This document shows, in pieces, positions 762 to 63,884 of a DNA stretch of 64,000 nt. The number at the start of each line of letters is the position of its first letter. Position 1 is the first letter of the stretch. A program made the translations under genes and the position numbers. Origin of the DNA: an uncultured Bacilli bacterium (lineage in GTDB: Bacteria > Bacillota_I > Bacilli_A > RF39 > UBA660); NCBI GenBank assembly GCA_934122395.1, contig CAKOWQ010000001.1, forward strand, positions 125,602 through 189,601, written 5' to 3'. A model generated the notes under the pieces. It saw nothing but the letters and a program-made list of their open reading frames with translations. It did not search any database and had not been told where the DNA came from.

Positions 762-1337
762 ATGAAAAAGATTGACAATAAGGGGTTCGTAATTGTAGAA
801 ACTATTATCGTTGCTGTATTTATAATAGGTATTTGTACTTTTCTATTTGCAAACTTTATACCTTTGATAGGTGAATATGAAAGAGTAGAAAAATATGATA
901 CTTTAGAGAAAAAGTATAAAACAAATGAGATAAGAAAAATGATTTTAATGGAGTTAGATAATTCCAATGAGGAAATATTTACGTCAACTAATTCAAGTGT
1001 ATATAAGATATATTCTACTGTAAAGACTAAAGAAGGTGAAAAAGAAGTAACTACTAATGAAATATGTGGTTATTTGAAATCTGTTAATTATTGCAATACT
1101 CTTTTAGGAGAAGACTTTATGAATGTTAAAAGTGTTGTTGTAACGCCATTTAAATTAAGTGATTTTAAGAGCCTAGCAAAGAACAGTAATAAGTTTACTA
1201 AAGCAGAAAAACAATATATTGATTATTTACCTAGTTATAAGAAATATTCTAGTAGATATGATAGTTATTATAGAATACTTGTATTTTATAATGATGGAGA
1301 ATTTTCTAATATAGAGGTGCATTATGAAATTGGATAA
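762..1337 (+). CDS. Prepilin-type (pseudopilin/minor pilin) protein
   Basis: N-terminus MKKIDNKG|FVIVETIIVAVFIIGI matches a class III (prepilin peptidase) signal: G-F, Glu at +5 and a hydrophobic helix. Divergent from the ComGA-like gene. Confidence 0.7.
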   Translation: MKKIDNKGFVIVETIIVAVFIIGICTFLFANFIPLIGEYERVEKYDTLEKKYKTNEIRKMILMELDNSNEEIFTSTNSSVYKIYSTVKTKEGEKEVTTNEICGYLKSVNYCNTLLGEDFMNVKSVVVTPFKLSDFKSLAKNSNKFTKAEKQYIDYLPSYKKYSSRYDSYYRILVFYNDGEFSNIEVHYEIG

Positions 1338-1875
1338 TAAAGGTTTTACAGTAATAGAATTAATTTTAAGTTTTACTTTAGTTATGTTTCTAACGCTAGG
1401 AATGTTTGCTCTAGTTAATAATTATCGAGCAAGAGAAGAAAAAGAATCAGTAAGAAAAGAACTTTTAGCTTACCAAAATACTTTAACTCAAGATATTTAT
1501 AATGATACTCTAGAAAGAAAAGTTAAAAGTATGAATTATTGTAAGGATAATAGTGGGCAAGTAATAAATCAATGTATTAATATAGATTTTTTAGATGGTA
1601 CTTCAAAAGAGTTACAAATAAAAAATAGAGAAATAGAAACAGAAGAGGATGGTACTACTTTTAGTTACAGTACTTTTAATATAATTTATGGTGGGGTTGC
1701 TTATGAAAATCCTGAACCTAAATTTGCAACGATTGTAAATGATTATATATTAACTATGACTACTGTTGATAATAACTTGGAAAAAGGTGTTATTTATAAA
1801 ATAAAGATTCGTATTAAATATCAGGATATAGATGATGAATTTGTAGTTGAGGTAATTACTACAGGTAGGGAATAA
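1324..1875 (+). CDS. Prepilin-type (pseudopilin/minor pilin) protein
   Basis: N-terminus MKLDNKG|FTVIELILSFTLVMFL (G-F-T-V-I-E prepilin motif). Start overlaps the upstream pilin gene by 14 nt, indicating translational coupling. Confidence 0.7.
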   Translation: MKLDNKGFTVIELILSFTLVMFLTLGMFALVNNYRAREEKESVRKELLAYQNTLTQDIYNDTLERKVKSMNYCKDNSGQVINQCINIDFLDGTSKELQIKNREIETEEDGTTFSYSTFNIIYGGVAYENPEPKFATIVNDYILTMTTVDNNLEKGVIYKIKIRIKYQDIDDEFVVEVITTGRE

Positions 1876-9295: not shown

Positions 9296-10750
9296 ATGAA
9301 TAAGAAACAAATAATAATAGTTGCAATGTGTTTAGTAGTATGTTTAATGATAGTAGGATATTCTATACTTGGACAGAACCTAAATATAGATGGAACGGCA
9401 GATATAGAGTCCAATTGGAATATATTATTTACTAGTGTAACAGCAAAAGAACAAACAAGTGGTGCAACATTTACTAGTACTCCTACAATAAGTGGAACAA
9501 CTCTAACATTTGGATTAGATTTAAAAGCACCAGGAGATGGAGTAAAGTTAGATGTAACAGTAGCAAATAAAGGAACATTAAATGCAATAATAAATAATAT
9601 TGAAGCCAAAAAGGGTGCTAATGAAGTAGTAAAGATAGAAATAACAGGAATAAAGAAAGGCGACAAACTAGGAAAAGGTGAATCAAAGACATTTGAAATT
9701 TATATAACATTTGATTCATCTGTAACAGATCAGCCAATAATGGATAGTGATATGTTAAGCGTGAGTGTAGACTTTGTCCAAGATGTAGGACAGACAATTA
9801 CAAGTGAAGACTTAGAAATAGTATCAATGGGATTAAGAAAGAAGATATTAAGAGATAATGAAGCACAAGCTGATACAAATATAGATTTTTCACAAATAAG
9901 TAGTGATACAAATGGGAAGGGCTTGTATTATACTTCAACAAACACTGAAGATAATAAAATAACATATTATTTTAGAGGAGCAGTAGAAAACAATTATGTA
10001 ACATTCGCTGGATTCACATGGCGAATAATAAGAATAAACGAAGATGGTAGCATAAGATTAATAAAGAAAGACACAATAGACTCTACAAAATTTGATAATG
10101 ATGATGGAGATGCAGCCTATGTAGGATATATGTATGGAACGCCGGACTCGTCGACATACGAGGAAACGCATAAAAATATTAATTCTAGTACTGTAAAAGA
10201 AGTGGTTGATACGTGGTATGAAAGTAATTTAATTGATTATACTTCGTTTTTATCAGATTCAGGTTTCTGCGGGGATAGAAGTATGGCTTCTAGTGCAGGT
10301 GTGTGGAGTGATATAGATACTGCATTAGGTTACGGATTTAATTATACATATTATGGAGCTAATAATAGATTAGATATAAACAGTACTCCACAATTTAAAT
10401 GCCCACAAGAAAACGACCTGTATACAACAACAACTGCCACGAAGGGTAACAAAGCATTAACATATCCGATAGGTTTAATAACAGCAGATGAAGCATCGTA
10501 TGCAGGAGCAGTACGTAACATATCAAACAAAACCAATTATTTAGCAGCAGCAGGTATATTCTGGACAATGTCACCGGCATCTTCTAGTAAAAAAGCTTAT
10601 GTCTTACGGGTACACACCGATGGCCGTATAGCTGCCGAAAACATTTTAACTGATAGATATGCTCGTCCAGTTATAAATCTCAAGCCAACAATAGAGATAA
10701 CAAAAGGTGATGGAACCCAAAATAATCCATATGTTATTAAAACAAACTAA
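9296..10750 (+). CDS. Secreted TasA/camelysin-like N-terminal domain protein with a large conserved C-terminal domain of unknown function (long paralog 1)
   Basis: Sec signal MNKKQIIIVAMCLVVCLMIVGYS, then a core TLTFGLDLKAPGDGVKLDVTVANKGTLNAIINNI resembling TasA/CalY L-x-PGD…N-G-S-L-A-I. About 85% nt identity in sampled stretches to the 62394–63884 gene. Confidence 0.55.
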   Translation: MNKKQIIIVAMCLVVCLMIVGYSILGQNLNIDGTADIESNWNILFTSVTAKEQTSGATFTSTPTISGTTLTFGLDLKAPGDGVKLDVTVANKGTLNAIINNIEAKKGANEVVKIEITGIKKGDKLGKGESKTFEIYITFDSSVTDQPIMDSDMLSVSVDFVQDVGQTITSEDLEIVSMGLRKKILRDNEAQADTNIDFSQISSDTNGKGLYYTSTNTEDNKITYYFRGAVENNYVTFAGFTWRIIRINEDGSIRLIKKDTIDSTKFDNDDGDAAYVGYMYGTPDSSTYEETHKNINSSTVKEVVDTWYESNLIDYTSFLSDSGFCGDRSMASSAGVWSDIDTALGYGFNYTYYGANNRLDINSTPQFKCPQENDLYTTTTATKGNKALTYPIGLITADEASYAGAVRNISNKTNYLAAAGIFWTMSPASSSKKAYVLRVHTDGRIAAENILTDRYARPVINLKPTIEITKGDGTQNNPYVIKTN

Positions 10751-19988: not shown

Positions 19989-20078
19989 AATAAAAATGTG
20001 TAAAATAAGTGAAAAAGGTAGCAAAAAAATTAGGTATATGTGTTATACTTAGTACATAATACAAGGAGGTAATAATTA

Positions 20079-20603
20079 ATGAATAAGAAAACAATTATGG
20101 CAGTAGCATTATGCGGAATGTTAGCTGCTATGGCAGTTGTTTATGCGGCATTCCAAACTACATTAACGGTAACTGGTACAACAACTCAAAGTGGTAACTT
20201 TAGTTTGCAAATTCTTGCAGAAGCAGCATCAGTAACAGGAACTGCAGGGTTAACTGGCGGAACAGCTCCAACAGCAACATGTACAAATACATCTGGATCT
20301 ACTACAGGAACTATGGCAGCAAAACTATATCAACCAGGAGATACTGTAACATGTTCTTATAAAGTAAAGAATGCTGGAACACTAAAAGCAAAAGCAAATG
20401 GAAATTATAGTTGTAGTCCATCATCACTTGCTAGTCCATTCTCTAGTTCAGTAACATGGAAGAAATCAGCACTAGCTAAAGGAGCTACAAGTGCTGCAGG
20501 AGAAATTACTATGACAATTACATACTTATCAAGTATAACTAGTCAACCAAGTACAACTAGTGCAAGTATTACATGTAATTTCCCATATACACAAGATATT
20601 TAA
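20079..20603 (+). CDS. Small secreted TasA/camelysin-like Thr/Ser/Ala-rich protein (short paralog A)
   Basis: Strong RBS AAGGAGG. Signal …AMAVVYAAF|QTTLTVTGT (AAF motif as in TasA WAAFND). Core LYQPGDTVTCSYKVKNAGTLKA. Confidence 0.55.
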   Translation: MNKKTIMAVALCGMLAAMAVVYAAFQTTLTVTGTTTQSGNFSLQILAEAASVTGTAGLTGGTAPTATCTNTSGSTTGTMAAKLYQPGDTVTCSYKVKNAGTLKAKANGNYSCSPSSLASPFSSSVTWKKSALAKGATSAAGEITMTITYLSSITSQPSTTSASITCNFPYTQDI

Positions 20604-20615
20604 TAGGAGGATATA

Positions 20616-21221
20616 ATGAAAGATAAAAAGGTATTATTAATATTAGTTTGTACTGCTGTATTAGTTCTAATGAGCGTAGCATTTGCAGCATTTAATCAAA
20701 CATTAAAAATAAATGGTACTGGTACTATTTCATCAACTTGGAAAGTTGAATTAGATACTGATACTGCTAATACTAAATGTACTGTATCAAGTAAGGATAG
20801 TGCTAATCCCACTACGTGTAACGTTACAGCGTTAAGCACTTCTGCATTAACTGCTAATATCAGTTGGGCTTCACCAGGGGACTCTGCTACAATCACTGCA
20901 AGAGTTAAAAATGGTGGTACACTTAATGCTAATGCTAGCATGTCTGCTAAGATAGGATTAACTAGTGCTGCTTCTTCTGCTTGTACAAATACTACAGCAA
21001 CAGCAAATTATACACAATATGCTGCTGATGGTAAAACTACTAGTGGAACAGCTAAAACTTTAACTGCAACAGCTCAAACAATTGGACCAATGAAAATATT
21101 AACACATGCAACATATAATTATGGTATTTATACAATTGTTATTACATATAATGCATCATCAACTGGAGCAGCTGGCGCATGTACATTCACAGGTACTGTT
21201 ACTGCAACACAAGCAGCTTAA
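20616..21221 (+). CDS. Small secreted TasA/camelysin-like Thr/Ser/Ala-rich protein (short paralog B)
   Basis: RBS AGGAGG. Signal …MSVAFAAF|NQTLKINGTGTISSTWKV. Core ISWASPGDSATITARVKNGGTLNA. Many N-x-S/T sequons. Confidence 0.55.
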   Translation: MKDKKVLLILVCTAVLVLMSVAFAAFNQTLKINGTGTISSTWKVELDTDTANTKCTVSSKDSANPTTCNVTALSTSALTANISWASPGDSATITARVKNGGTLNANASMSAKIGLTSAASSACTNTTATANYTQYAADGKTTSGTAKTLTATAQTIGPMKILTHATYNYGIYTIVITYNASSTGAAGACTFTGTVTATQAA

Positions 21222-21236
21222 TAAATAATATATGTT

Positions 21237-21267
21237 TTAAAAAGAGATATTAATACAATATCTCTTT
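21237..21267. terminator. Bidirectional intrinsic terminator
   Basis: aaaagagatatt-aataca-atatctctttt followed by T8, between convergent genes. Confidence 0.65.
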
Positions 21268-22542
21268 TATTTTTTTATAATTATATAGTGTTATAAATAT
21301 TGTACTTATACTAATACCTAATATAAGGCCCCATATTCCTATTTTAAAGGCCGAAAAGGTTAATAATGATATAATTCTTATACTCATGCCAATAATCGTT
21401 GTATTCATGTTTATTTTGCTTTTTCCCATGGCATCTAAACTTGATGCTAGAGGAGACTGTATATATTGAATTAAACATACTGGAGCAAGGAATCTGATAT
21501 ATGAAATTCCAAGATTAGTATTATATATTAGTTTTAGTGGAAAATTTGGAATAATTTCAAAGATTAAAGTAATGGGTATACCTATTAAAAGAGAGAAAAA
21601 TATTGCTTGTTTTACTTTTCTTATTATATATTTTTTATCATTATTAGCATATGCTTTACTTACTACTGGTAATAATGCTTGGGAGATAGCTCCAGTAAAA
21701 AAAGAAGGAAGCAATAATAACGGTAATACATAACCACTAACGATACCATATTCTCTTACAATAAAACTGTTTGAGTATCCAACTTTTAAAAGAACAAAAG
21801 TTAGTATTATTGGTTCTAGAAAATAACCAATTGATCCTATTATCCTACTGCCGGTAGTAGGAAGTGAAATATTTAATACTGCTTTTAAGTTTAATGGATC
21901 TGGAATTATATCTTTTTTTCTTAGTTTGAACTTTTTAGGCAGAAAGAAAAATAATACTAGAGAAGAACAAAGTTCACTTATTACATTAACTAAAATTAAG
22001 CCTGATACTGCATATACTAAGCTTTTATTTAATAGAGTAGGGATAGTAATAGTAATCAAAATTAATCTTGTTATCTGCTCTGTAATATTTGATACAACAT
22101 GAGGAATCATCTTTTGTTTTCCAAAAAAATAACCTCTTAATATACTTGATAAAGTATCAAAAGGTAACACTAGACCGATAGCTAAAATAGGGTAATAACA
22201 CCTAGGATCTTTTAATAAGTTGTTTGCAAGAATAGGAGATATTAGGATAATTACAAACATTAATATAATATTTAGTATTAGAGAAAATGGTATTATTGAA
22301 AAGACAATACTTTTATTATTATAATTATCCTCTGATACTAGCTTACTAATAGCAACAGGAAATCCTAGTTGTGAAATAGTCATAAAAAGAGCAAAAGTGG
22401 GAAAAATTAACATATATAAACCTATTCCTTCTACTCCTACTATTCTAGTCATAATTATTTTAATAATCATTCCTAATATTTTAGTTAGTAAGCCGCCTAT
22501 CATTAATATAATTGTTGATATTAAAAACTTTTCCTTTTTCAT
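21250..22542 (-). CDS. MOP-superfamily oligosaccharide flippase (SpoVB / polysaccharide biosynthesis protein family)
   Basis: 430-aa polytopic membrane protein. N-terminus MKKEKFLISTIILMIGGLLTKILGMIIKIIMTRIVGVEGIGLY is typical of the SpoVB/Wzx/MurJ-like family. Confidence 0.65.
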   Translation of the reverse strand: MKKEKFLISTIILMIGGLLTKILGMIIKIIMTRIVGVEGIGLYMLIFPTFALFMTISQLGFPVAISKLVSEDNYNNKSIVFSIIPFSLILNIILMFVIILISPILANNLLKDPRCYYPILAIGLVLPFDTLSSILRGYFFGKQKMIPHVVSNITEQITRLILITITIPTLLNKSLVYAVSGLILVNVISELCSSLVLFFFLPKKFKLRKKDIIPDPLNLKAVLNISLPTTGSRIIGSIGYFLEPIILTFVLLKVGYSNSFIVREYGIVSGYVLPLLLLPSFFTGAISQALLPVVSKAYANNDKKYIIRKVKQAIFFSLLIGIPITLIFEIIPNFPLKLIYNTNLGISYIRFLAPVCLIQYIQSPLASSLDAMGKSKINMNTTIIGMSIRIISLLTFSAFKIGIWGLILGISISTIFITLYNYKKIKEILY

Positions 22543-39755: not shown

Positions 39756-39985
39756 TTCTAAAAAAACGCGATAATTTCTATCCCATAAGGACGAATTATC
39801 GCGGTACCACCTTAATTTATGATTAATAATCATACACTCAAAGTTATAAAGTAACTAACTAATAAACTCATAATGTGTAATTCAATCGTATTATATGTTT
39901 AATTTCACCAAACTTAAACTCTCTAAAATATAACTAACACAATCTACTTATCATTAATCAACATTTATTTAACATAAGACAATTA
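39756..39985 (-). promoter_or_regulatory. T-box riboswitch leader (Tyr-responsive) with terminator/antiterminator
   Basis: Minus strand: extended -10 TGATATAAT, AGAGAG box, candidate specifier UACA, T-box sequence AAATTAAGGTGGTACCGCG, then a 10-bp terminator stem CGCGATAATT/AATTATCGCG plus U7 immediately before the tyrS RBS. Confidence 0.8.
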
Positions 39986-46841: not shown

Positions 46842-47528
46842 TTACATCTTAACTTCTTTTATAGTTTTTATTTTTTGCTTTTCAATAGAACTCATATTAT
46901 ATGTAGTAAAATAGTCATAAAATCTTATACTTTTAGGTATTTCTATTAAACCATCACCTGCTACAGTATAATTATAAGACTTTTCATTAAGTCTAATAGC
47001 AGTATAATGATCACCATGATTAGAACATACATAGTAATAATAAAACACTTTTTCATCACTTGGATAAACCAATATACTATCTACTGGTGGTTTATTATCT
47101 AAAAGATATTCTTCCACAAATACATCATTATATTCACTAGGACTATCAGCAGCACCTATAACAATCTTCTTATATAAATTTCTTTTAAAGTTTTTAAAAG
47201 TGTTTTCAGTTATTGTAAAATTAGTAGTAGGAATTATATCCTCATATTCTAATTGATACAAACATTCATTAACTCTAGAATCATGTTTGATTGGATAAAA
47301 TCTAGATCTAAGAATAGTACCATTTCTTTTAGAAGTATTAGTTGTTAATGGACATCCAAAGAAATAATCGGCATTAAGACTAGTAATCAAATACATTGCT
47401 CTTTTCCCAAACAACTCTTGATCCGGTCTATCATAATAAATTTTTCTATTAGCCCATACAACTGTACCTGGATGTAAATCTTTTTTTAATGTATACATAA
47501 AATCACCTTGGCACATATTGTAATTCAA
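46842..47528 (-). CDS. Hypothetical protein at the spo0B position
   Basis: 228 aa between obg and rpmA, where Bacillus has spo0B. No resemblance to Spo0B. Confidence 0.4.
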   Translation of the reverse strand: MNYNMCQGDFMYTLKKDLHPGTVVWANRKIYYDRPDQELFGKRAMYLITSLNADYFFGCPLTTNTSKRNGTILRSRFYPIKHDSRVNECLYQLEYEDIIPTTNFTITENTFKNFKRNLYKKIVIGAADSPSEYNDVFVEEYLLDNKPPVDSILVYPSDEKVFYYYYVCSNHGDHYTAIRLNEKSYNYTVAGDGLIEIPKSIRFYDYFTTYNMSSIEKQKIKTIKEVKM

Positions 47529-48944: not shown

Positions 48945-49103
48945 TTTTTTACCTCCTTTATATATTTCTAGACTCGCTTTTAAGGTAACAATTACTTGTT
49001 TTATAACCTAATCAATGCGGTTTGAGCTATAAAGGCTACAAACAAGAAGATTTTATCATAATTATTTACCCAAGTCAATAAAAAAAGACTATTATAGCCT
49101 TTC

Positions 49104-51901: not shown

Positions 51902-52906
51902 TTATTGACTAACTCCATCGGTTACTTCTATTTTATTTAACGAATAATTATTGTTTTCATCTTTTATAAATGTGTACTTATAAATAGTGCCTTTATCGAT
52001 GTATGTACTAATAGTGGCATCTGGATCATTAGTTATAAGAGTTTCAAACTTAGGATCCATAAATACCCCTTCTCTAGTTATAAAGACTACTCTTTGATAT
52101 AATTCTATTCCATCTATAGTTTTATAAGCTTTAATTAACTTTTGTTGAATCAATTTACTTAATTCACCTGATTCACTATATTCATTACATGTAACTCTAT
52201 ATTTATCGTTTTCAAACGTTAGTAATAACTTCTTTGGTGTTTGATTTGAATTATAATAAGTATAGTTTAAATTTTTATAATTTATTGTAGTATTAGCTCC
52301 AAATAATAGTTGCATTTCTTTATCAAATACTTCTTTAGAAATTTCTATACCTTTTTCATCACATGTAGTTACATATTCTTCTACTCCTGAGTTTTTTAAC
52401 ATTTCACTAAAACTAATAGTTCTTTTTAATAAATATAGTTTTATATCATCAGAAATATCATTAGAATTTAGAGCTTGGTTCAAAAATAACGGATATAAAT
52501 CGATTTTCATAAAATCTGTTTCATAAAAGCTCATTCTACTATTTAATTCAACTACAGTACTATCAGTTAATGATAATTCACCCAAGGTATCTTCATTATT
52601 ATCATCAGCTTTGTCATTTACTGGAGTTTCATCTAGCTTTTTATCATTTATTTTAAAAGGATTAATAAGTACAATTAATACAATAACACCTGCTGCTATA
52701 ACACCTATTAATAGATATAATAGTTTTTTTCTTATTTCTTGTAATTCATTTTGATCATACTCTTTGTGAGGCTCTTCTTTGGTTGATACTCCGTATAACC
52801 TATTAATACGCTCTGTTAGTTCATCATTTTCTTTTTCAATAATCTCTTTAGTGTCTATTTTTTCATGATTAATATTAGAATTATTTTCTGACATAGTAAA
52901 CACCAC
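51902..52906 (-). CDS. Membrane-anchored hypothetical protein (paralog of the 55034–55882 product)
   Basis: Cytoplasmic N-terminus, one TM, external domain. C-terminus …YKYTFIKDENNNYSLNKIE matches …TYTFKMDEENNYYFYSSKIE of the paralog. Confidence 0.45.
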   Translation of the reverse strand: MVFTMSENNSNINHEKIDTKEIIEKENDELTERINRLYGVSTKEEPHKEYDQNELQEIRKKLLYLLIGVIAAGVIVLIVLINPFKINDKKLDETPVNDKADDNNEDTLGELSLTDSTVVELNSRMSFYETDFMKIDLYPLFLNQALNSNDISDDIKLYLLKRTISFSEMLKNSGVEEYVTTCDEKGIEISKEVFDKEMQLLFGANTTINYKNLNYTYYNSNQTPKKLLLTFENDKYRVTCNEYSESGELSKLIQQKLIKAYKTIDGIELYQRVVFITREGVFMDPKFETLITNDPDATISTYIDKGTIYKYTFIKDENNNYSLNKIEVTDGVSQ

Positions 52907-53795: not shown

Positions 53796-53879
53796 TGGTG
53801 CGGGTAACAGGAGTTGAACCTGCATGCCTAAGGCGCTAGATCCTAAGTCTAGTGCGTCTGCCAATTCCGCCATACCCGC
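53796..53879 (-). tRNA. tRNA-Leu (anticodon TAG), class II with long variable arm
   Basis: Reverse complement GCGGGTATGGCGGAATTGGCAGACGCACTAGACTTAGGATCTAGCGCCTTAGGCATGCAGGTTCAACTCCTGTTACCCGCACCA. Cloverleaf with encoded CCA. Confidence 0.8.
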
Positions 53880-53887
53880 AAAATAAA

Positions 53888-53964
53888 TGGTGGACCCTAT
53901 AGGACTCGAACCTATGACCGTCCGGTTATGAGCCGGATGCTCTAACCAACTGAGCTAAGGGTCC
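53888..53964 (-). tRNA. tRNA with CAT anticodon, most like tRNA-Ile2 (lysidine) / tRNA-Met
   Basis: Reverse complement GGACCCTTAGCTCAGTTGGTTAGAGCATCCGGCTCATAACCGGACGGTCATAGGTTCGAGTCCTATAGGGTCCACCA. Closely resembles Bacillus tRNA-Ile(LAU). Confidence 0.8.
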
Positions 53965-55033: not shown

Positions 55034-55882
55034 TTACGATTCTATTTTACTACTGTAGAAATAGTAATTATTTTCTTCATCCATTTTAAATGTATAAGTT
55101 ATTATTCCTGAATCTTTAGCATAATCATCAAACTTAAACTTTTTAATAAAATCATTAGTTGGATAATCAATTTCTTTAATTAAATCTTCTTGATATATGT
55201 CTCGATAAAGCTTAATACTTGTTATATCTTTATCATTATCACTATATTCTTTATTAACAAACATAAAGTTTTCTTTTATTGTTATAGTTTTATTATCATT
55301 ATCAATATCATAACTATTTAATTTGTAATAATAGTTTTTAATCTTGTCATTATTAGGTTTAAAGCCATTAATTCTAGTTATTACATATTCATTATTATCT
55401 TTATCAAAACTAATAGACATAATACTGTTTTTTACTATTTTATTAGTCATAATTACTACCTCTTTTGAATTATCATGAACTGTATTCTTACCAAAGATAG
55501 TTTCTATATATCCATTATATATACCAGCATCAATCGAATATGTACGATCATCTTTTTTAGTTACTTGTTTTTCGTCTAATAAACCAAATGCATATCTAAC
55601 TTTTTCAAGTGCATCGAATTTTTCATAATTTAGTTCATTATTTTGATAAAAATAATATGTTGGTTCTACATCTCTATTAAATGTAATATATCCATATAAT
55701 GTATCAATTATGCTTTTATTGGTATCTTTTTCAATATTTTCTTCTTCCTTAGTATCTTTATGTCCTAATGCTGTATTGAATGAAAAGATAATAGCACTAC
55801 CTAATATTAAAATTGTACATACTAACATTAATTTCATTACAAAGTTTGAATAACTTGTATCTCTTTCTTTACACTTCATCAC
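55034..55882 (-). CDS. Membrane-anchored hypothetical protein (paralog of the 51902–52906 product)
   Basis: N-terminal TM. C-terminal similarity to the 51902 product. Confidence 0.45.
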   Translation of the reverse strand: MMKCKERDTSYSNFVMKLMLVCTILILGSAIIFSFNTALGHKDTKEEENIEKDTNKSIIDTLYGYITFNRDVEPTYYFYQNNELNYEKFDALEKVRYAFGLLDEKQVTKKDDRTYSIDAGIYNGYIETIFGKNTVHDNSKEVVIMTNKIVKNSIMSISFDKDNNEYVITRINGFKPNNDKIKNYYYKLNSYDIDNDNKTITIKENFMFVNKEYSDNDKDITSIKLYRDIYQEDLIKEIDYPTNDFIKKFKFDDYAKDSGIITYTFKMDEENNYYFYSSKIES

Positions 55883-58226: not shown

Positions 58227-59219
58227 CTATTTTACTAATACCCATTCATCGTATCCATAAGTATTAGTAATTGCTCCAGTTGTCCTAATCTCTTCTTTTA
58301 ATACTACAACAGGTCTTGCTCCAAATGGACCACTAACAAGATCAAGTATACGCTGGCCACCATAAGTTGGCGCACCAGTACCTAAAGTAGATTTAGTAAA
58401 ACCTTTTAAGCAGGTTTTATCATCACACAAATCAGCTAATACATAACCTGCATCAGTATTTGATACTGAAGTTTTCAAATCAGTTAATATGTTACCTGAA
58501 TCATTATTTTTAGTTGAATTCTTCAAATCAGCTTCATTAGCCATCCTAGCACTCTCTGCATAATCACTATTAACAAAAGTATTCCAATCGTATGGATTAC
58601 TGGTAATAATACTAGTATCTGTAAACTTACTATTATCTCCAGTAAAGAAATAATATGTAGATGCCGAATAAGCAAGTTTATCATCAGTGTTATTATTAGA
58701 TGCTAAGTAATAACAGAATGGAGATCCTGCATGAATAATTGTTACTGTACTTTCACTAATTGAAAGAATTCGCCATCCATCATATTTATTAGTATTTCTA
58801 CTAGCGCATGTAATACTATTATTCTTACTAGTACCAGCATTATAACCACCAAATTCGAAATCATCTCCTTCTGGTAATGCTACAGTACTTGCCCATGTTC
58901 CAGCATCATAACTAACAAAATCACCTACTTGAGCTTTTTCTGCTAAAAGAAATGTCACTTCTTTTTTACCTATACAATTATTATATTCTCTTGCATCACA
59001 CTTACCACCATTTAAGTAACACTCTTCTAATATAGCCTCGCTAAGTGCACATTTATTCATTTTATCTTCTACACTTTTTACTAGTTCCTGATTCGTATCT
59101 TTACTTGATTTCATTATTCCAAAAATAAGCATTAAAATAATTATGATCAATGATAAAGTTCCATATAAAATAGTAGAAACTGCAAACCCCTTATTATTAA
59201 GTTTAATCATAACTTTCAC
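58227..59219 (-). CDS. Secreted Cys-rich protein with prepilin-like N-terminus (candidate minor pilin/adhesin)
   Basis: N-terminus MKVMIKLNNKG|FAVSTILYGTLSLIIIILMLIFGI: KGF motif and hydrophobic helix as in the 762 and 1324 pilins, but Thr rather than Glu at +5. 12 Cys. Confidence 0.45.
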   Translation of the reverse strand: MKVMIKLNNKGFAVSTILYGTLSLIIIILMLIFGIMKSSKDTNQELVKSVEDKMNKCALSEAILEECYLNGGKCDAREYNNCIGKKEVTFLLAEKAQVGDFVSYDAGTWASTVALPEGDDFEFGGYNAGTSKNNSITCASRNTNKYDGWRILSISESTVTIIHAGSPFCYYLASNNNTDDKLAYSASTYYFFTGDNSKFTDTSIITSNPYDWNTFVNSDYAESARMANEADLKNSTKNNDSGNILTDLKTSVSNTDAGYVLADLCDDKTCLKGFTKSTLGTGAPTYGGQRILDLVSGPFGARPVVVLKEEIRTTGAITNTYGYDEWVLVK

Positions 59220-59801: not shown

Positions 59802-60111
59802 TTTGACACCTCTTTTTATCTACCAATTTATTTAATCTTTTATTCATTTCCAACACAGTAAAATATAACTCATCTTCTAAAGAACGATATTCACTAATCA
59901 AAGGATTTTCTATTATTTGTTTTTTTAGTTCTACATATTCTTTAGAATACTTATTATCCATATTACGATATTTTTCTAGTAAGTTTTTTAATTCTTCATT
60001 AGATGTAATTTCTTCTTTTAATTTTTTCATTTTTAGTATTTCATCGCAATTATTAAGTTCTTTAAAAAGAGAGTCTATTCTATCTAATATTTTTTCATTC
60101 ATAAAGAGCAC
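59788..60111 (-). CDS. YlbF/YmcA (UPF0342) family protein
   Basis: 107-aa helical protein upstream of rsmD, the position of ylbF/ylbG in Bacillus. Confidence 0.5.
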   Translation of the reverse strand: MLFMNEKILDRIDSLFKELNNCDEILKMKKLKEEITSNEELKNLLEKYRNMDNKYSKEYVELKKQIIENPLISEYRSLEDELYFTVLEMNKRLNKLVDKKRCQSENN

Positions 60112-62326
60112 CTCTTAATTCTTTTATTAAGTCTTCTACTTCTTTATTTGATTCATTAAATAGTTCTATTCTAAAAACATTAATACCTTTATTTAGATAA
60201 GTATTTATATTAGATATTTTATCTATTACTTTAGAATCCATAATATGAGTTAGATGTTTACTTTGAAGTAATGGATATTCTCTTAATTCTTTATCTTTCA
60301 AATAATAGTTGTCTTTATTTAAACACAAATCACATTTTTTATCATCTTTATTAATAAGCATATTTAAAGGGCAGTATTTAGTAATCATAAGTTCTATTCT
60401 GCCATATATAACTATTTCTACATCAACTTTAGAATTGATTTTAGATAGACCAATAACTTCAGGAGATAGTGTTACTCTTTTTACTCCTAGACTTTCTAAT
60501 AATTTTATACTTTCGTTATTGTTAACGTTTAAGTAGTAATCAGTGCATACTTCATTATCTTTAGAATATTTATTTATGCCACCTAATTCGCATACTAAAA
60601 TGTTTGTATTTTTATATTCTTGAAACTTATTAATAACACGATCTAGTCTCAAATAAATTCTAGAGTCAGATTTATATTTATTAAAAAGATTTATATCAGA
60701 CACATATATGTAATCAACATTATTAGATAATGCCGTTAGTAATTGTTCTTCATTTCTTACTAAAATACTTATTTTCTTTTCATTAGTACGGTTAATAGAA
60801 GGGCTAGGTTCTAAAGTATTTATTTTTTTCTCTTTTACATAACATCTTTTATTAATTAAGTCTTCTGTTAACTCACGTCGCAAATTATTTAAGCTGCTTA
60901 ATGGAATAAAAATATTAGAATTCATTTCAATATTGATATTATTGACTTTAAATGGAGTGTTTCCTAATTTAGATAATTGTTTTATTATATCTTCTTTTCC
61001 AACTGGACGATTAGTAGAGGATCCTACTACATCACCTTTTATACTAGAAGTGTTAATGCCATCAGTAAAAGATATTTCTAAAGGTGTGTTTAATAAGGCT
61101 TTAACTGTAATATCAATATTAATTTTCTTTTCTTCATAATTATGTAATTTTTTTAATAATTTACTATCTATCGTAATTGAGACATTAGATTTTTCTTTTA
61201 ATCCTACTTTATTATCTACTATAGCAATATTATTACTAGAAATACTGTTAGTTAGCAGCATCTTAGAATTGTACAATTTATTTACAATCATACCTTTATC
61301 AACATCAGTAAACTTAATACCATCTTCTTGATTTAATTCATGATCTAGTTTTATTTTGATATATTTAGGATCTACTTCTATTACTTTACCTATTCTTAGA
61401 CCAATATGGTTTGGTGACTTAATATTCATAACATCTTTGCCATATTCATTAAATAAGTATCCATTAGTGAATTGTCTATTGAATAAAGTTTTTAATTCGT
61501 TAATTTCCTCGTTATCAATAGTTAGTTCTTGATTATTATAATATTTATCTATTAAAGTGCGATAGAATTTAGTAATAAATCCAACATATTCAGGGCTTTT
61601 CATACGTCCTTCTATTTTTAGACTTATAATATCACTATCTAAGATATCTTTTAAATACTTACTAGTATTTAATTCTTTCATACTTAATAAATAGTTACCA
61701 TCCGTTTTAATTTTTTCATCATTTTTATAAAGTTCATAAGGTAATCTACAAGAAGCGATGCATTCTCCTCTATTACCAGATCTATTCGTATTCATTGCAC
61801 TAAAAAGGCAACAACCAGAATAGCATACACATAATGCACCATGAATAAATACTTCTTTTTCAATATCTACATCTATATTTTTAATTTCATCAAGTGATAA
61901 TTCACGAGCTAGCACTACTCTTTTAACACCAAGATCTTTTAATAATTTTATTCCTTCAGAATTATGATTATGAGTTTGAGTAGATGCATGTATTTCAAGA
62001 AGAGGATATTTTTTGTGAACTAAAGAAATCATACCAATATCCTGCATTATTACAGCATCAACACCATTAACATATAAAAATTCTATATAATCCAAAAAAT
62101 CTTCTATCTCACTATCAAAAATAATAGTATTAACTGTTATATATATTTTAACACCATACAAGTGGCAATATCTAATAGCTTGTTGTAAATCTTCTGGTGC
62201 AAAATTGTCTGCGAACATACGGGCACCAAACTTCTTTCCGCCTAAATAAACAGCATCACAGCCATTATGTATTGCTTGATACAAGCTTTCCATATTACCA
62301 ACTGGACTTAACAGTTCTTTCTTCAT
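60095..62326 (-). CDS. Peptidase U32 family protein (collagenase-like, tandem U32 domains)
   Basis: 743 aa. U32 signature region E-x-F-x-H-G-A-L-C-x-x-Y-S-G-x-C. Confidence 0.8.
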   Translation of the reverse strand: MKKELLSPVGNMESLYQAIHNGCDAVYLGGKKFGARMFADNFAPEDLQQAIRYCHLYGVKIYITVNTIIFDSEIEDFLDYIEFLYVNGVDAVIMQDIGMISLVHKKYPLLEIHASTQTHNHNSEGIKLLKDLGVKRVVLARELSLDEIKNIDVDIEKEVFIHGALCVCYSGCCLFSAMNTNRSGNRGECIASCRLPYELYKNDEKIKTDGNYLLSMKELNTSKYLKDILDSDIISLKIEGRMKSPEYVGFITKFYRTLIDKYYNNQELTIDNEEINELKTLFNRQFTNGYLFNEYGKDVMNIKSPNHIGLRIGKVIEVDPKYIKIKLDHELNQEDGIKFTDVDKGMIVNKLYNSKMLLTNSISSNNIAIVDNKVGLKEKSNVSITIDSKLLKKLHNYEEKKINIDITVKALLNTPLEISFTDGINTSSIKGDVVGSSTNRPVGKEDIIKQLSKLGNTPFKVNNINIEMNSNIFIPLSSLNNLRRELTEDLINKRCYVKEKKINTLEPSPSINRTNEKKISILVRNEEQLLTALSNNVDYIYVSDINLFNKYKSDSRIYLRLDRVINKFQEYKNTNILVCELGGINKYSKDNEVCTDYYLNVNNNESIKLLESLGVKRVTLSPEVIGLSKINSKVDVEIVIYGRIELMITKYCPLNMLINKDDKKCDLCLNKDNYYLKDKELREYPLLQSKHLTHIMDSKVIDKISNINTYLNKGINVFRIELFNESNKEVEDLIKELRGALYE

Positions 62327-62393: not shown

Positions 62394-63884
62394 TTAATTA
62401 GTTTTTATAATGTATGGGTTATTTTTAGTTCCGTTTCCACCCATGATTTGAGCATCAAATTTTAAATTGATAACTGGTCGAACATCCCATTCACGATAAG
62501 AACCATCGTAACTCGTTTGTCCCTCGTCTACTACAAGGCATACATAAGCAGTTGAAGAAACATAATTAGGCGATATCATCCAAAAGCTTATTCCCGAATT
62601 CATATAATAACCATTATTTTCCCAGCCACTAATTCCTCCTGCATAATTCGTTTCATCAGCCGTTATTAATCCGATTGGATAATCTAGAGCTTTATTACCT
62701 TTATTAGTCGTCTTAGTTGTATATAAATCATTTACTTGAGGACATTTGAATTGTGGCTTCTTCCTAGTCCAATTTTTAAATGATTCTAGTCTTGCTGTAG
62801 ATCCATAAACCGTTTCGTTAACACCATATCCTAAAGCAGTATCACCTGGCTTCCAAATATTAGGGGCAGATGCTACACTTCTATCTCCACAGAATCCTGA
62901 ATCAGCTAAATAACTTGAATAACTCATTAAATTATTTTGATACCATGTATCTATAAAAGTCTTTATTGTACTTGAATTAATATTTGCATGTGTCTCTTCA
63001 TACGTTGAAGCACCAACTGTCCCATACATATATCCTACATATGCATTATCAGTATCATCCTCATTAAACTTGCTCTTGCCTATCGAATCTTGCTTTATTA
63101 ATCTTATTGAACCATCTTCATTTATTCTTACTATTCTCCATGTGAATCCTGCGAATGTTACATAGTTATTTTCTACTTCTCCTCTAAAATAATATGTTAC
63201 TTTATTATCTTCGGTATTGGTACTTGTATAATATAATCCTTTACCATTTGTATCACTACTTATCTTAGAAAAATCTATACTTGTATCCGCTTGTGCTTCA
63301 TTGTCTTTCAATATTTTTGCTGCTAGTCTTGTTGGTACTATTATAGTATCATCTGTTACTATCGTTTGTCCTGTATCTTGTACATAATTAATATTTATTG
63401 TTAATGTACTATCTATTAAATTAGGTTGGCTTGTTACATTGTTATCATATGATATTGTTACATCAAATGTCGTTGTTGTTTTACTTGCTAATTTGTCTCC
63501 CTTTTTAATACCTGTTATTTCAAAATTTATTGCATCACTTCCAGTCTCGCTTGCTGTTATATCATCTATTACTGCATTTAATGTCCCTTGATTTGCTACT
63601 GTTATTTTGTAGACTATATTGTCTCCTGGGCTTGTTAAGTCTATATTGAATGTTGCTGTTGTTCCACTTGCTGTTGGTGTTTCTTTTATCTTTATTCCAC
63701 TTGTTTTGAACACCTCTGTTATGTCTGTAAATACCACTTTCCAGGTTGACTCTATACTTGATGTTCCTGTTATTGTTAGTTTTGTTGCAAAGGCTGCATA
63801 CCCTACTGCCATTATACATATTAAGCTACACATTGCTATTATCAATATCTTCTTACTTTTCATATACTTTTCTTCCATCTCCAT
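62394..63884 (-). CDS. Secreted TasA/camelysin-like N-terminal domain protein with conserved C-terminal domain (long paralog 2)
   Basis: 496 aa. Signal …AMCSLICIMAVGYAAF|ATKLTITGT. Core ATFNIDLTSPGDNIVYKITVANQGTLNAVIDDI. C-terminal domain collinear with the 9296 gene. RBS GGAGG favours the second or third Met as the start. Confidence 0.55.
   Translation of the reverse strand: MEMEEKYMKSKKILIIAMCSLICIMAVGYAAFATKLTITGTSSIESTWKVVFTDITEVFKTSGIKIKETPTASGTTATFNIDLTSPGDNIVYKITVANQGTLNAVIDDITASETGSDAINFEITGIKKGDKLASKTTTTFDVTISYDNNVTSQPNLIDSTLTININYVQDTGQTIVTDDTIIVPTRLAAKILKDNEAQADTSIDFSKISSDTNGKGLYYTSTNTEDNKVTYYFRGEVENNYVTFAGFTWRIVRINEDGSIRLIKQDSIGKSKFNEDDTDNAYVGYMYGTVGASTYEETHANINSSTIKTFIDTWYQNNLMSYSSYLADSGFCGDRSVASAPNIWKPGDTALGYGVNETVYGSTARLESFKNWTRKKPQFKCPQVNDLYTTKTTNKGNKALDYPIGLITADETNYAGGISGWENNGYYMNSGISFWMISPNYVSSTAYVCLVVDEGQTSYDGSYREWDVRPVINLKFDAQIMGGNGTKNNPYIIKTN

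Follow-up and report, generated by a model that had tools for sequence, protein, structure and literature searches.

A tandem pair of Thr/Ser-rich secreted proteins from an uncultured Bacilli bacterium: putative filament subunits with affinity to the TasA superfamily

The window analysed here is a 64,000 nt stretch from an uncultured Bacilli bacterium (contig CAKOWQ010000001.1). Two adjacent forward-strand genes within it encode small secreted paralogues, gene A (20079-20603, 174 aa, Thr/Ser-rich) and gene B (20616-21221, 201 aa, Thr/Ala-rich). On balance, the evidence leans towards A and B being secreted subunits of an AbpX-like donor-strand filament belonging to the TasA superfamily. The window also encodes two long paralogues, which would be adhesin-bearing subunits that use the same strand. 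The superfamily is taken here to comprise TasA, AbpA, AbpX, CanA, the 0406 thread and Tafi. Four independent lines point to it: a profile comparison with the PDB, a profile alignment made with hhalign, AlphaFold2 (AF2) models of the monomers, and the genomic context of the relative P0011. Taken together, the sequence comparisons are suggestive of homology to characterised members, being coherent rather than decisive. An earlier note had proposed TasA-like fibre subunits, and with the donor-strand register added to the profile, hhalign and P0011 results this would hold at the level of the superfamily, not for TasA/camelysin proper. The pair is best filed as a divergent clade of a known kind of system, one that is known to be widespread.

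A and B each open with a predicted signal peptide. That of A (residues 1-23, 20079-20147, +) is of the Sec type: MNKK forms its n-region, a hydrophobic core comes next, and the residues at -3 and -1 are small. That of B (residues 1-24, 20616-20687, +) ends in an AXA-type site and is modelled as a helix at residues 2-26. Judged from these features, cleavage would fall at VYA|AF in A and at AFA|AF in B. The N-terminal extensions of the mature chains, AFQTTLTVTGT... in A (20148-20204, +) and AFNQTLKINGTGTISSTWKVEL in B (20688-20753, +), are the candidate donor strands, and they are among the most conserved segments of the family. The A|AF junction is 79-95% conserved, and L30, I32, G34, S40 and W42 (B numbering) are conserved at 86% or more, rising to 90% or more among 104 diverse members. 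Across 155 non-orthologous members this post-signal segment equals the PGD/N/G core in its degree of conservation. The donor strand of AbpX, a protein of Pyrodictium abyssi with AbpX-like relatives in Bacillota and Chloroflexota (TasA superfamily, PDB 9sj2 and 9rhp), runs from W2 to I12, and the aromatic at position 2 is a conserved hallmark (bioRxiv 10.64898/2026.01.04.697558). Cleavage at YA|AF would put the family Phe at mature position 2, like W2 of AbpX. In the profile alignment described below, the family sequence 'sqqLkInGT' falls on AbpX residues 3-11, 'SETLSLSAT', the alignment beginning at chain residue 3. In AbpX and in this family alike, the signal peptide leads straight into an amphipathic strand whose second mature residue is aromatic, and the register agrees (AWSETLSLSATI-type versus AFSTTLKINGT).

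The AF2 model of mature A has a mean predicted local distance difference test score (pLDDT) of 85.9 and a predicted template modelling score (pTM) of 0.79. It is a beta-sandwich in which the N-terminal ~19 residues are without secondary structure and of low confidence. The model of B (pLDDT 86.2, pTM 0.75) is likewise a confident beta-sandwich, with an extra ~50-aa insertion within it, and residues 27-36, in the candidate donor strand, have a pLDDT below 50. The N-terminal extension is similarly unplaced in the AbpX monomer (bioRxiv 10.64898/2026.01.04.697558) and the BsaA monomer (PMC11580942) before strand donation, so that an unstructured extension is common to AbpX and, as far as the models go, to this pair. 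AbpX also resembles A and B in mature size (163 aa versus 150-180 aa) and in having a jelly-roll core with a P-G-x...N-x-G-T strand pair.

Profile comparison with the PDB (177,635 sequences) was made with a clean, trimmed and diverse alignment of 24 family sequences. The matches were to AbpX 9sj2 (E = 0.0035), AbpX 9rhp (0.013), TasA 5of1 (0.18) and the TasA fibre 8aur (0.2), and these AbpX and TasA chains account for four of the five best matches. The sequence similarity to AbpX, the best match, is marginal. With a second, independent alignment the same proteins are three of the four best matches (E = 0.043, 0.35 and 0.56). Searches of the PDB with the single A and B sequences gave nothing useful. 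A local hhalign comparison of a 185-sequence family alignment with 111 TasA homologues gave a probability of 87% with the signal peptides included and 74% (P = 2.8e-5) with the mature parts only, while reversed or column-shuffled controls gave 0.5% or less. The confident core is 29 columns over the PGD...N.G.L stretch, and at low stringency the C-terminal ...Y-x-Q strand pairs with 'FEATQ' of TasA.

The fourth line is the genomic context of P0011 (E = 4e-10 to B; loci L009 and L010), which lies within an array of three tandem family paralogues of 185-195 aa. In L009 (150-6738) the genes beyond an insertion sequence (DDE_Tnp_1) encode a 382-aa polytopic SipW-type signal peptidase and then a DUF5305 protein (PF17231). 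The peptidase of these loci matches PF10502, scores 99 bits against TIGR02228 (cut-off 51.85 bits) and has the SGSMSP and VHRI motifs. A signal peptidase I with DUF5305 is the typical accessory pair of AbpX and Tafi loci (bioRxiv 10.64898/2026.01.04.697558), and in the literature searched DUF5305 occurs solely in work on TasA-superfamily filaments (Tafi or AbpX). The polytopic peptidase and DUF5305 are a further likeness to AbpX in at least one locus of the family. A U32 peptidase gene is also found near the L009/L010 array; in the window a U32 peptidase gene (60095-62326) adjoins one of the long paralogues.

In the proposed mechanism A and B would be co-transcribed and Sec-secreted, and a signal peptidase would cut at (V/F)(Y/F)A|AF, as the sequence predicts. 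This would free the conserved amphipathic segment A-F-(S/N/Q)-x-T-L-x-I-x-G-T, with its aromatic at mature position 2 and in the AbpX register. The freed segment would be disordered in the monomer, as in the AF2 models, until the next subunit took it up as a beta-strand of its jelly-roll (donor-strand complementation), so that a homopolymer or an A/B heteropolymer would form. The long paralogues and thousands of module-bearing relatives may join such filaments through the same strand, as tip or decorating adhesins carrying DUF6273, BspA-type leucine-rich repeat (LRR), DUF285, Flg_new, carbohydrate-binding module (CBM) or Hint domains. Minor-subunit or tip-protein paralogues with the same module have likewise been proposed for AbpX.

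Similar features are found in the TasA/TapA/SipW system of Bacillus subtilis and in CalY of Bacillus cereus (PF12389, Peptidase_M73; PDB 5of1 and 8aur). By eye, the junction TWA|AFND of TasA resembles AFA|AFNQ in B, a PGD-x8-N-x-G-S/T-L motif lies one strand later, and the C-terminal strand ends in -(A/Y)-(T/V)-Q. There is also a two-gene arrangement of major and accessory protein, and TasA fibres form by N-terminal donor-strand exchange. TasA differs in being larger than A and B, at 234 aa mature with helical insertions, and in having sipW in the same operon in Bacillus, a gene absent from the window. The BsaA/BsaB/SipW/BsaC system of Clostridium perfringens, an anaerobic member of the Bacillota, likewise has two small and remote TasA homologues encoded in tandem (PMC11580942). 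One of BsaA and BsaB makes long oligomers and the other dimers only, and the disordered N-terminal residues of mature BsaA are modelled to intercalate into the next monomer; tandem paralogues are reported for BsaA/TasA loci, and multiple paralogues per bsa operon are taken to suggest heteropolymers (PMC11580942). By analogy with BsaA/BsaB and TasA/TapA, a division of A and B into major and minor subunits, as the earlier note had suggested, is plausible. The BsaA strand differs in being locked by an Asn-Lys isopeptide bond (N-E-K triad), and the bsa operon has sipW and a von Willebrand factor A protein. At mature position 9, B has Asn and A has Thr, and the family alignments show no Lys or Glu that is conserved throughout.

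The unit that defines the family of A and B is a ~170-aa N-terminal module, which is found in A, B and the two long open reading frames (ORFs) of the window, 9296-10750 (+) and 62394-63884 (-). BLASTP comparisons among the four give E values of 1e-12 to 1e-23 across the first ~100-170 aa. The first long paralogue (484 aa) matches A at E = 2e-15; the module occupies its residues ~1-170, and the remaining C-terminal domain of ~300 aa weakly matches DUF6273. The second, 496 aa as the longest ORF with a likely start at MKSKK (63863), also ends in a DUF6273-like domain, matches A at 1e-22 and B at 2e-16, and has a 74% identical orthologue in locus L011. The N-terminus is thus truly common to the four. 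The AAF-type signal peptide that the earlier note ascribed to the pair and the long paralogues is present in A, B and 62394-63884, as a (V/G/F)(Y/F)A-AF junction, but 9296-10750 has GYS-IL there.

A k-mer-seeded database search found only ~20 relatives per query. An exhaustive HMMER profile search, covering 1.84 billion cluster representatives (clusters at 50% identity), found the module in 8,263 clusters at 1e-3, 4,761 at 1e-10 and 649 at 1e-30. In nearly all of the 150 best matches the module begins within the first ~10 residues of proteins that range from 164 to 1,080 aa, and its C-terminal fusions are to DUF6273, BspA-type LRR, DUF285, Flg_new, CBM, Laminin_G and Hint domains. A strictly N-terminal position is expected of a donor-strand module because the strand must be freed by signal-peptide cleavage. 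The family has a signature in four parts: a basic n-region and hydrophobic core ending in M-A-V-G-Y-A; A-F-S-T-x-L-x-I-x-G-T-x-x-I-x-S-x-W-x-V; past a variable stretch, S-P-G-D-x-(V/I)-x-Y-x-(I/V)-x-V-x-N-x-G-T-L-x-A; and Y-x-x-x-(V/I)-T-S-Q-P...Y-x-Q. The third is present in A as the PGD-x9-N-x-G-T-L-x-A strand pair (residues 86-104, 20334-20390, +), of which the P, G, D, N, G and A are near-invariant in the family. In B it lies at residues 87-105 (20874-20930, +), with P87, G88, D89, N99, G101, L103 and A105 invariant in a further alignment (A1). Overall, A and B are 28% identical. Tandem arrays of two to five paralogues recur in the family. At the P0017 locus (GCA_016648615.1) there are five consecutive genes of 259-330 aa, one of them P0017 and the others without a Pfam match.

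A number of results weigh against the filament reading, the first of them in the sequence comparisons. A messier full-length alignment of 104 sequences gave no matches in the PDB. The hhalign result is not specific by itself, because CARDB and DUF11 also have the PGD...N.G.L motif. PF12389 stays below its gathering threshold of 22.5 bits, with 12.6 bits in A (E = 0.13, residues 84-105) and no match in B, and reaches E <= 0.01 in 10 of the 104 family members (best 9e-5). The module scores below threshold with every Pfam and NCBIfam model, and the weak Pfam matches all centre on the PGD-x9-N-x-G motif, as does the weak PF12389/CARDB match of A at residues 84-106. Among the 104 members DUF7507 (38), HYDIN-Ig (27) and DUF11 (26) match more often than Peptidase_M73/TasA (10), with CARDB at 9, and these are non-polymerising sandwiches with the same motif. 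A scan of NCBIfam with E values up to 10 gave nothing for A and unrelated weak matches for B, though HMMER filters may drop very short weak matches. Since no NCBIfam model matched either protein, TIGR04088, the model of SipW-cognate signal peptides, is not matched. With PF12389 below threshold, TIGR04088 unmatched and no sipW-type gene in the window or in the flanks of the A and B orthologues, membership of the TasA/CalY/camelysin family proper is ruled out. Fold searches were unspecific, returning generic sandwiches, PapD/MSP/ASH-like Ig domains and CBMs; TasA was not among the matches listed, and structural comparison, which the earlier note had named as a test of its fibre proposal, did not single out TasA.

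Signal peptidase I motifs are absent from all window ORFs of at least 50 aa, and the window ORFs scanned with Pfam include neither a DUF5305 nor a sortase gene. No such peptidase or DUF5305 gene was found within 8-10 kb of the A and B orthologues, or in the 10 kb upstream of the long-paralogue orthologue in L011. Of the remaining family genes examined, most lie dispersed among housekeeping genes. A and B differ from AbpX loci in having no peptidase, DUF5305, S-layer homology or LPXTG anchor, or cyclic di-GMP gene nearby.

These results fit the main rival reading, possible but not probable, in which the family consists of surface proteins that do not polymerise. The module would then be a signal or uncleaved anchor followed by a CARDB/DUF11/DUF7507-like stalk, and A and B would be stand-alone stalks in a variable, Thr-rich cell-surface coat. 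The more frequent weak matches to stalk-type domains, the generic results of the fold searches and the lack of a dedicated peptidase nearby in this lineage are all in its favour. In addition, A and B have diverged faster than the genes around them (41-57% identity versus 58-85% in L007 and L017) and the number of paralogues at the locus ranges from two to four among lineages, which is typical of variable surface antigens. In L007 (9456-11876, rabbit-gut metagenome-assembled genome (MAG) CANRAE010000006.1) there are four tandem small paralogues of 175, ~195, 171 and 178 aa. CARDB, DUF11 and DUF7507, domains of large bacterial and archaeal surface proteins, have the 'PGD-x-(V/I)-x-Y-x-(I/V)-x-V-x-N-x-G' strand-turn-strand motif of the module. 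However, they are internal and often repeated and are without the conserved post-signal strand, whereas the module is single and strictly N-terminal, and all of their matches are below the gathering thresholds. A stalk would leave unexplained the conserved, unplaced segment in register with a solved donor strand, the extreme N-terminal and unrepeated position of the module, and the P0011 locus with its SipW-type peptidase and DUF5305.

Chemistry also sets the pair apart from AbpX. AbpX-like proteins are acidic (pI about 4, ~15% Asp/Glu), and the acidic residue at their donor position 4 serves Ca2+-triggered assembly. Among the 151 residues of mature A there are 4 Asp and Glu, and among the 177 of mature B there are 6 (2.6-3.4%), with 8 and 10 Lys and Arg, so that both have a net positive charge. 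Donor position 4 is Thr in A, Gln in B and Thr in the family consensus. Instead, T+S+A+G make up 56.3% of mature A and 56.5% of mature B (~23% in the other window ORFs), and each mature chain has 4 Cys, those of B being invariant in 10 orthologues; AbpX is unlike the pair in both respects. The description of low-complexity, T/S/A/G-rich proteins with multiple Cys is therefore accurate. Two disulfides per subunit are probable. The Thr/Ser/Ala/Gly-rich, nearly uncharged surface and the disulfides are specific to the A and B subfamilies. More speculatively, these features may serve O-glycosylation or resistance to gut proteases.

Other ways of placing the proteins at the cell surface were ruled out. 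There is no lipobox ([LVI][ASTVI][GAS]C) at the end of either signal peptide, and the single Cys of the signal region, C12 in both, sits midway along the hydrophobic core, where it follows A-L in A and L-V in B; these are therefore not lipoproteins. Neither protein has an LPXTG-type sorting signal, A ending in NFPYTQDI and B in VTATQAA, and with no sortase among the window ORFs scanned a sortase-anchored pilin was rejected. The type IV prepilin motif (G|F-T-L-x-E and a hydrophobic helix, PF07963) is absent from both, which rules out a type IV pilin or pseudopilin on motif grounds.

Glycosylation had been suggested by the sequons of the second protein and by the neighbouring flippase gene. B has exactly 8 N-x-S/T sequons, in agreement with the earlier count of at least eight, where shuffles of its own composition give 4.1±1.6 (P = 0.02); A has 3 where 2.0 are expected by shuffling (P = 0.32). 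The count in B is mostly a by-product of its composition, rich in Thr, Ser and Asn, and the excess is marginal. A fibre that is N-glycosylated at these sequons, with the adjacent MOP-family flippase supplying a lipid-linked glycan, is very improbable. In its favour are the roughly twofold sequon number of B, the conservation of NGT, NTT/NVT and NYT sites in the B orthologues, and the adjacency itself, as the MOP-family gene is indeed present at 21250-22542. That gene is SpoVB-like (lipid II/cortex type; TIGR02900, 307 bits), lies on the opposite strand beside spoIIM and converges on A and B. In L007, L017 and L018 a DNA-alkylation-repair gene, at times with another ORF, lies between the flippase and B. 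A functional link is thereby ruled out and the adjacency, regarded as incidental, gives no hint of a glycan. A has no excess of sequons, and the conserved NGT belongs to the donor-strand motif of the whole family, occurring also in members that are not Thr-rich. No STT3/PglB-type oligosaccharyltransferase or glycosyltransferase was identified among the window ORFs scanned, and N-glycosylation is unsupported.

O-glycosylation of Thr and Ser in A and B is possible. In the rabbit-gut locus L006 (4185-9264, MAG CANQGH010000043.1) the A and B orthologues have three genes immediately upstream. These encode a polytopic protein of 556 aa whose loop motif 'YYIDELWSYG' is GT-C-like ('DE' motif), an enlarged A-like paralogue of 237 aa, and an 808-aa YfhO-family GT-C protein (PF09586, E = 1e-122) with PgfM2/PgfM1 of Streptococcus mutans as its best NCBIfam match. 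The Pgf system of S. mutans O-glycosylates Thr-rich adhesins. The YfhO/PgfM-like protein and the second polytopic protein could be counted in favour of a glycosylated fibre; against N-glycosylation, the targets of YfhO/Pgf-type enzymes are Ser/Thr or teichoic acids rather than Asn. The upstream genes of L006 may be an O-glycosylation module for Thr-rich proteins, a single hint from one relative.

Sporulation genes are also close to the pair, and components of the spore coat, exosporium or an appendage, possibly crosslinked by disulfides, were considered in place of fibres of a vegetative biofilm. This explanation is improbable, and it would be compatible with a TasA-like fold. It would draw on the SpoVB-like, SpoIIM and SpoIVB genes of the window, the first two immediately downstream of A and B, and on the four conserved Cys per mature chain. 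In locus L014 (2948-4123) the family member P0014 (199 aa) directly follows a 186-aa ORF, and two CotZ-type spore-coat genes are ~1 kb away. The first annotation of TasA itself was as spore coat-associated protein N. However, A and B have classical signal peptides, which Ena and most coat proteins, being assembled in the mother cell, do not need. The neighbouring spoVB and spoIIM are oriented convergently or divergently, in relatives other genes intervene, and the match to Ena2A is one among hundreds of jelly-roll matches.

Both genes of the pair are preceded by an AGGAGG ribosome-binding site read from the sequence, at 20064-20069 (+), 9 nt ahead of the ATG of A, and at 20605-20610 (+), 5 nt ahead of that of B. 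The two adjacent ORFs with strong ribosome-binding sites that the earlier note had described are thus present, separated by a gap of 12 nt on the same strand. A and B are real genes rather than chance ORFs, since they have orthologues of 41-98% identity that are syntenic in several gut metagenomes and MAGs and their AF2 models are confident. Between B and the convergent spoVB-like gene there is a 12-bp hairpin with a T-run (U-run in RNA) at 21240-21276, with a folding energy of -11.8 kcal/mol (z = -2.99 versus shuffles), which is likely to be a bidirectional terminator. A scan for consensus terminators did not pick it up because the stem is AT-rich. G+C content rises to 35-40% across A and B, against 22-30% in the flanks and 27.6% in the whole window; the two genes have 35-37% and their neighbours 26%. 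The abundant Ala, Gly and Thr codons account for this, and horizontal transfer was rejected on codon content together with the synteny of the locus across the lineage.

There are 18 orthologue clusters of A, at 41-98% identity, and orthologues of B at 55-98%. The gene order mtaB-A-B-...-flippase-spoIIM is kept in human (Hadza) and other gut metagenomes. A scan of a genome collection located related loci in three 'uncultured Bacilli bacterium' MAGs, one Hadza and two rabbit ('Lapin'). The Hadza locus (L005) and the rabbit locus L007 are in the same genomic place as A and B, and in L007 a DNA-alkylation-repair gene lies between the paralogues and the flippase; the upstream context of the rabbit locus L006 differs. 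No protein among the orthologues bears a name in the source annotations.

Upstream of the pair are mutS, mutL, miaA, rsmE and mtaB, the last directly flanking it, and downstream are the SpoVB-like flippase gene, spoIIM, mnmA and alr. Farther downstream in the window are dnaK/dnaJ/grpE/hrcA, spoIVB, obg and a transketolase gene. This is the housekeeping and sporulation gene content of a low-GC spore-forming Firmicute. The Rfam matches in the window (39784-39970, 48960-49032 and 53799-53964, all on the reverse strand) are ordinary, being a T-box leader, an L21 leader and two tRNA genes. Three reverse-strand ORFs of 228-334 aa, 51902-52906, 55034-55882 and 46842-47528, are without Pfam matches. 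Of these, the first two are Asn/Lys-rich with a hydrophobic segment near the N-terminus, and may be lineage-specific membrane or secreted proteins.

Pilin-like genes are present in the window at 18-37 kb from A and B. The overlapping ORFs 762-1337 (+) and 1324-1875 (+) have type-IV-pilin-like N-termini (NKGFVIVETII and NKGFTVIELILS) with weak PF07963 matches, and resemble minor pseudopilins of a Com, type IV pilus or type II secretion system-like operon that starts before the window. The ORF 58227-59219 (-) encodes 330 aa without a Pfam match, with a pilin-like N-terminus (NNKGFAVSTILYG) and a hydrophobic helix. A C-terminal domain common to this protein ('ARPVVVLK') and the long paralogues ('RPVINLK') was considered and rejected, as BLASTP finds no similarity. 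N_methyl proteins are also encoded close to family members in L008 (12322-12768) and L009 (10763 onward). Secretion of BsaC, a protein of the TasA locus of C. perfringens, depends on a type IV pilin (PMC11580942).

A wider role for the module is rather doubtful. As a general assembly handle, it would allow one SipW-type peptidase/DUF5305 system per genome to process dozens of scattered substrates. Through their freed strands, small Thr-rich subunits such as A and B would co-polymerise with the many paralogues that carry adhesin, LRR, CBM or Hint domains, as mixed, possibly O-glycosylated filaments. If so, this would be a means of modular surface display in uncultured gut Bacilli, with a scope like that of sortase pili and strand donation of the TasA type, and it would extend over more than 8,000 protein clusters that lack a database model.

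If the filament reading is wrong, A and B would simply be small, variable proteins at the surface of an uncultured Firmicute. If it is right, the TasA superfamily would gain an unannotated clade of 8,263 clusters, with no Pfam or NCBIfam model and no name given at source, whose members are recovered from human (Hadza) and rabbit gut metagenomes. The clade is noteworthy in being very large, unannotated, chemically unusual and modular. It could then be annotated by the signature G-Y-A|A-F-S-T-x-L-x-I-x-G-T...S-x-W, PGD-x9-N-x-G-T-L-x-A and Y-x-Q. Its uncharged, Thr-rich chemistry would be unlike the acidic, calcium-triggered AbpX type. The placing of one N-terminal module ahead of varied adhesin-like domains would suggest that diverse binding domains are mounted on a single filament, which would bear on gut colonisation and biofilm formation.

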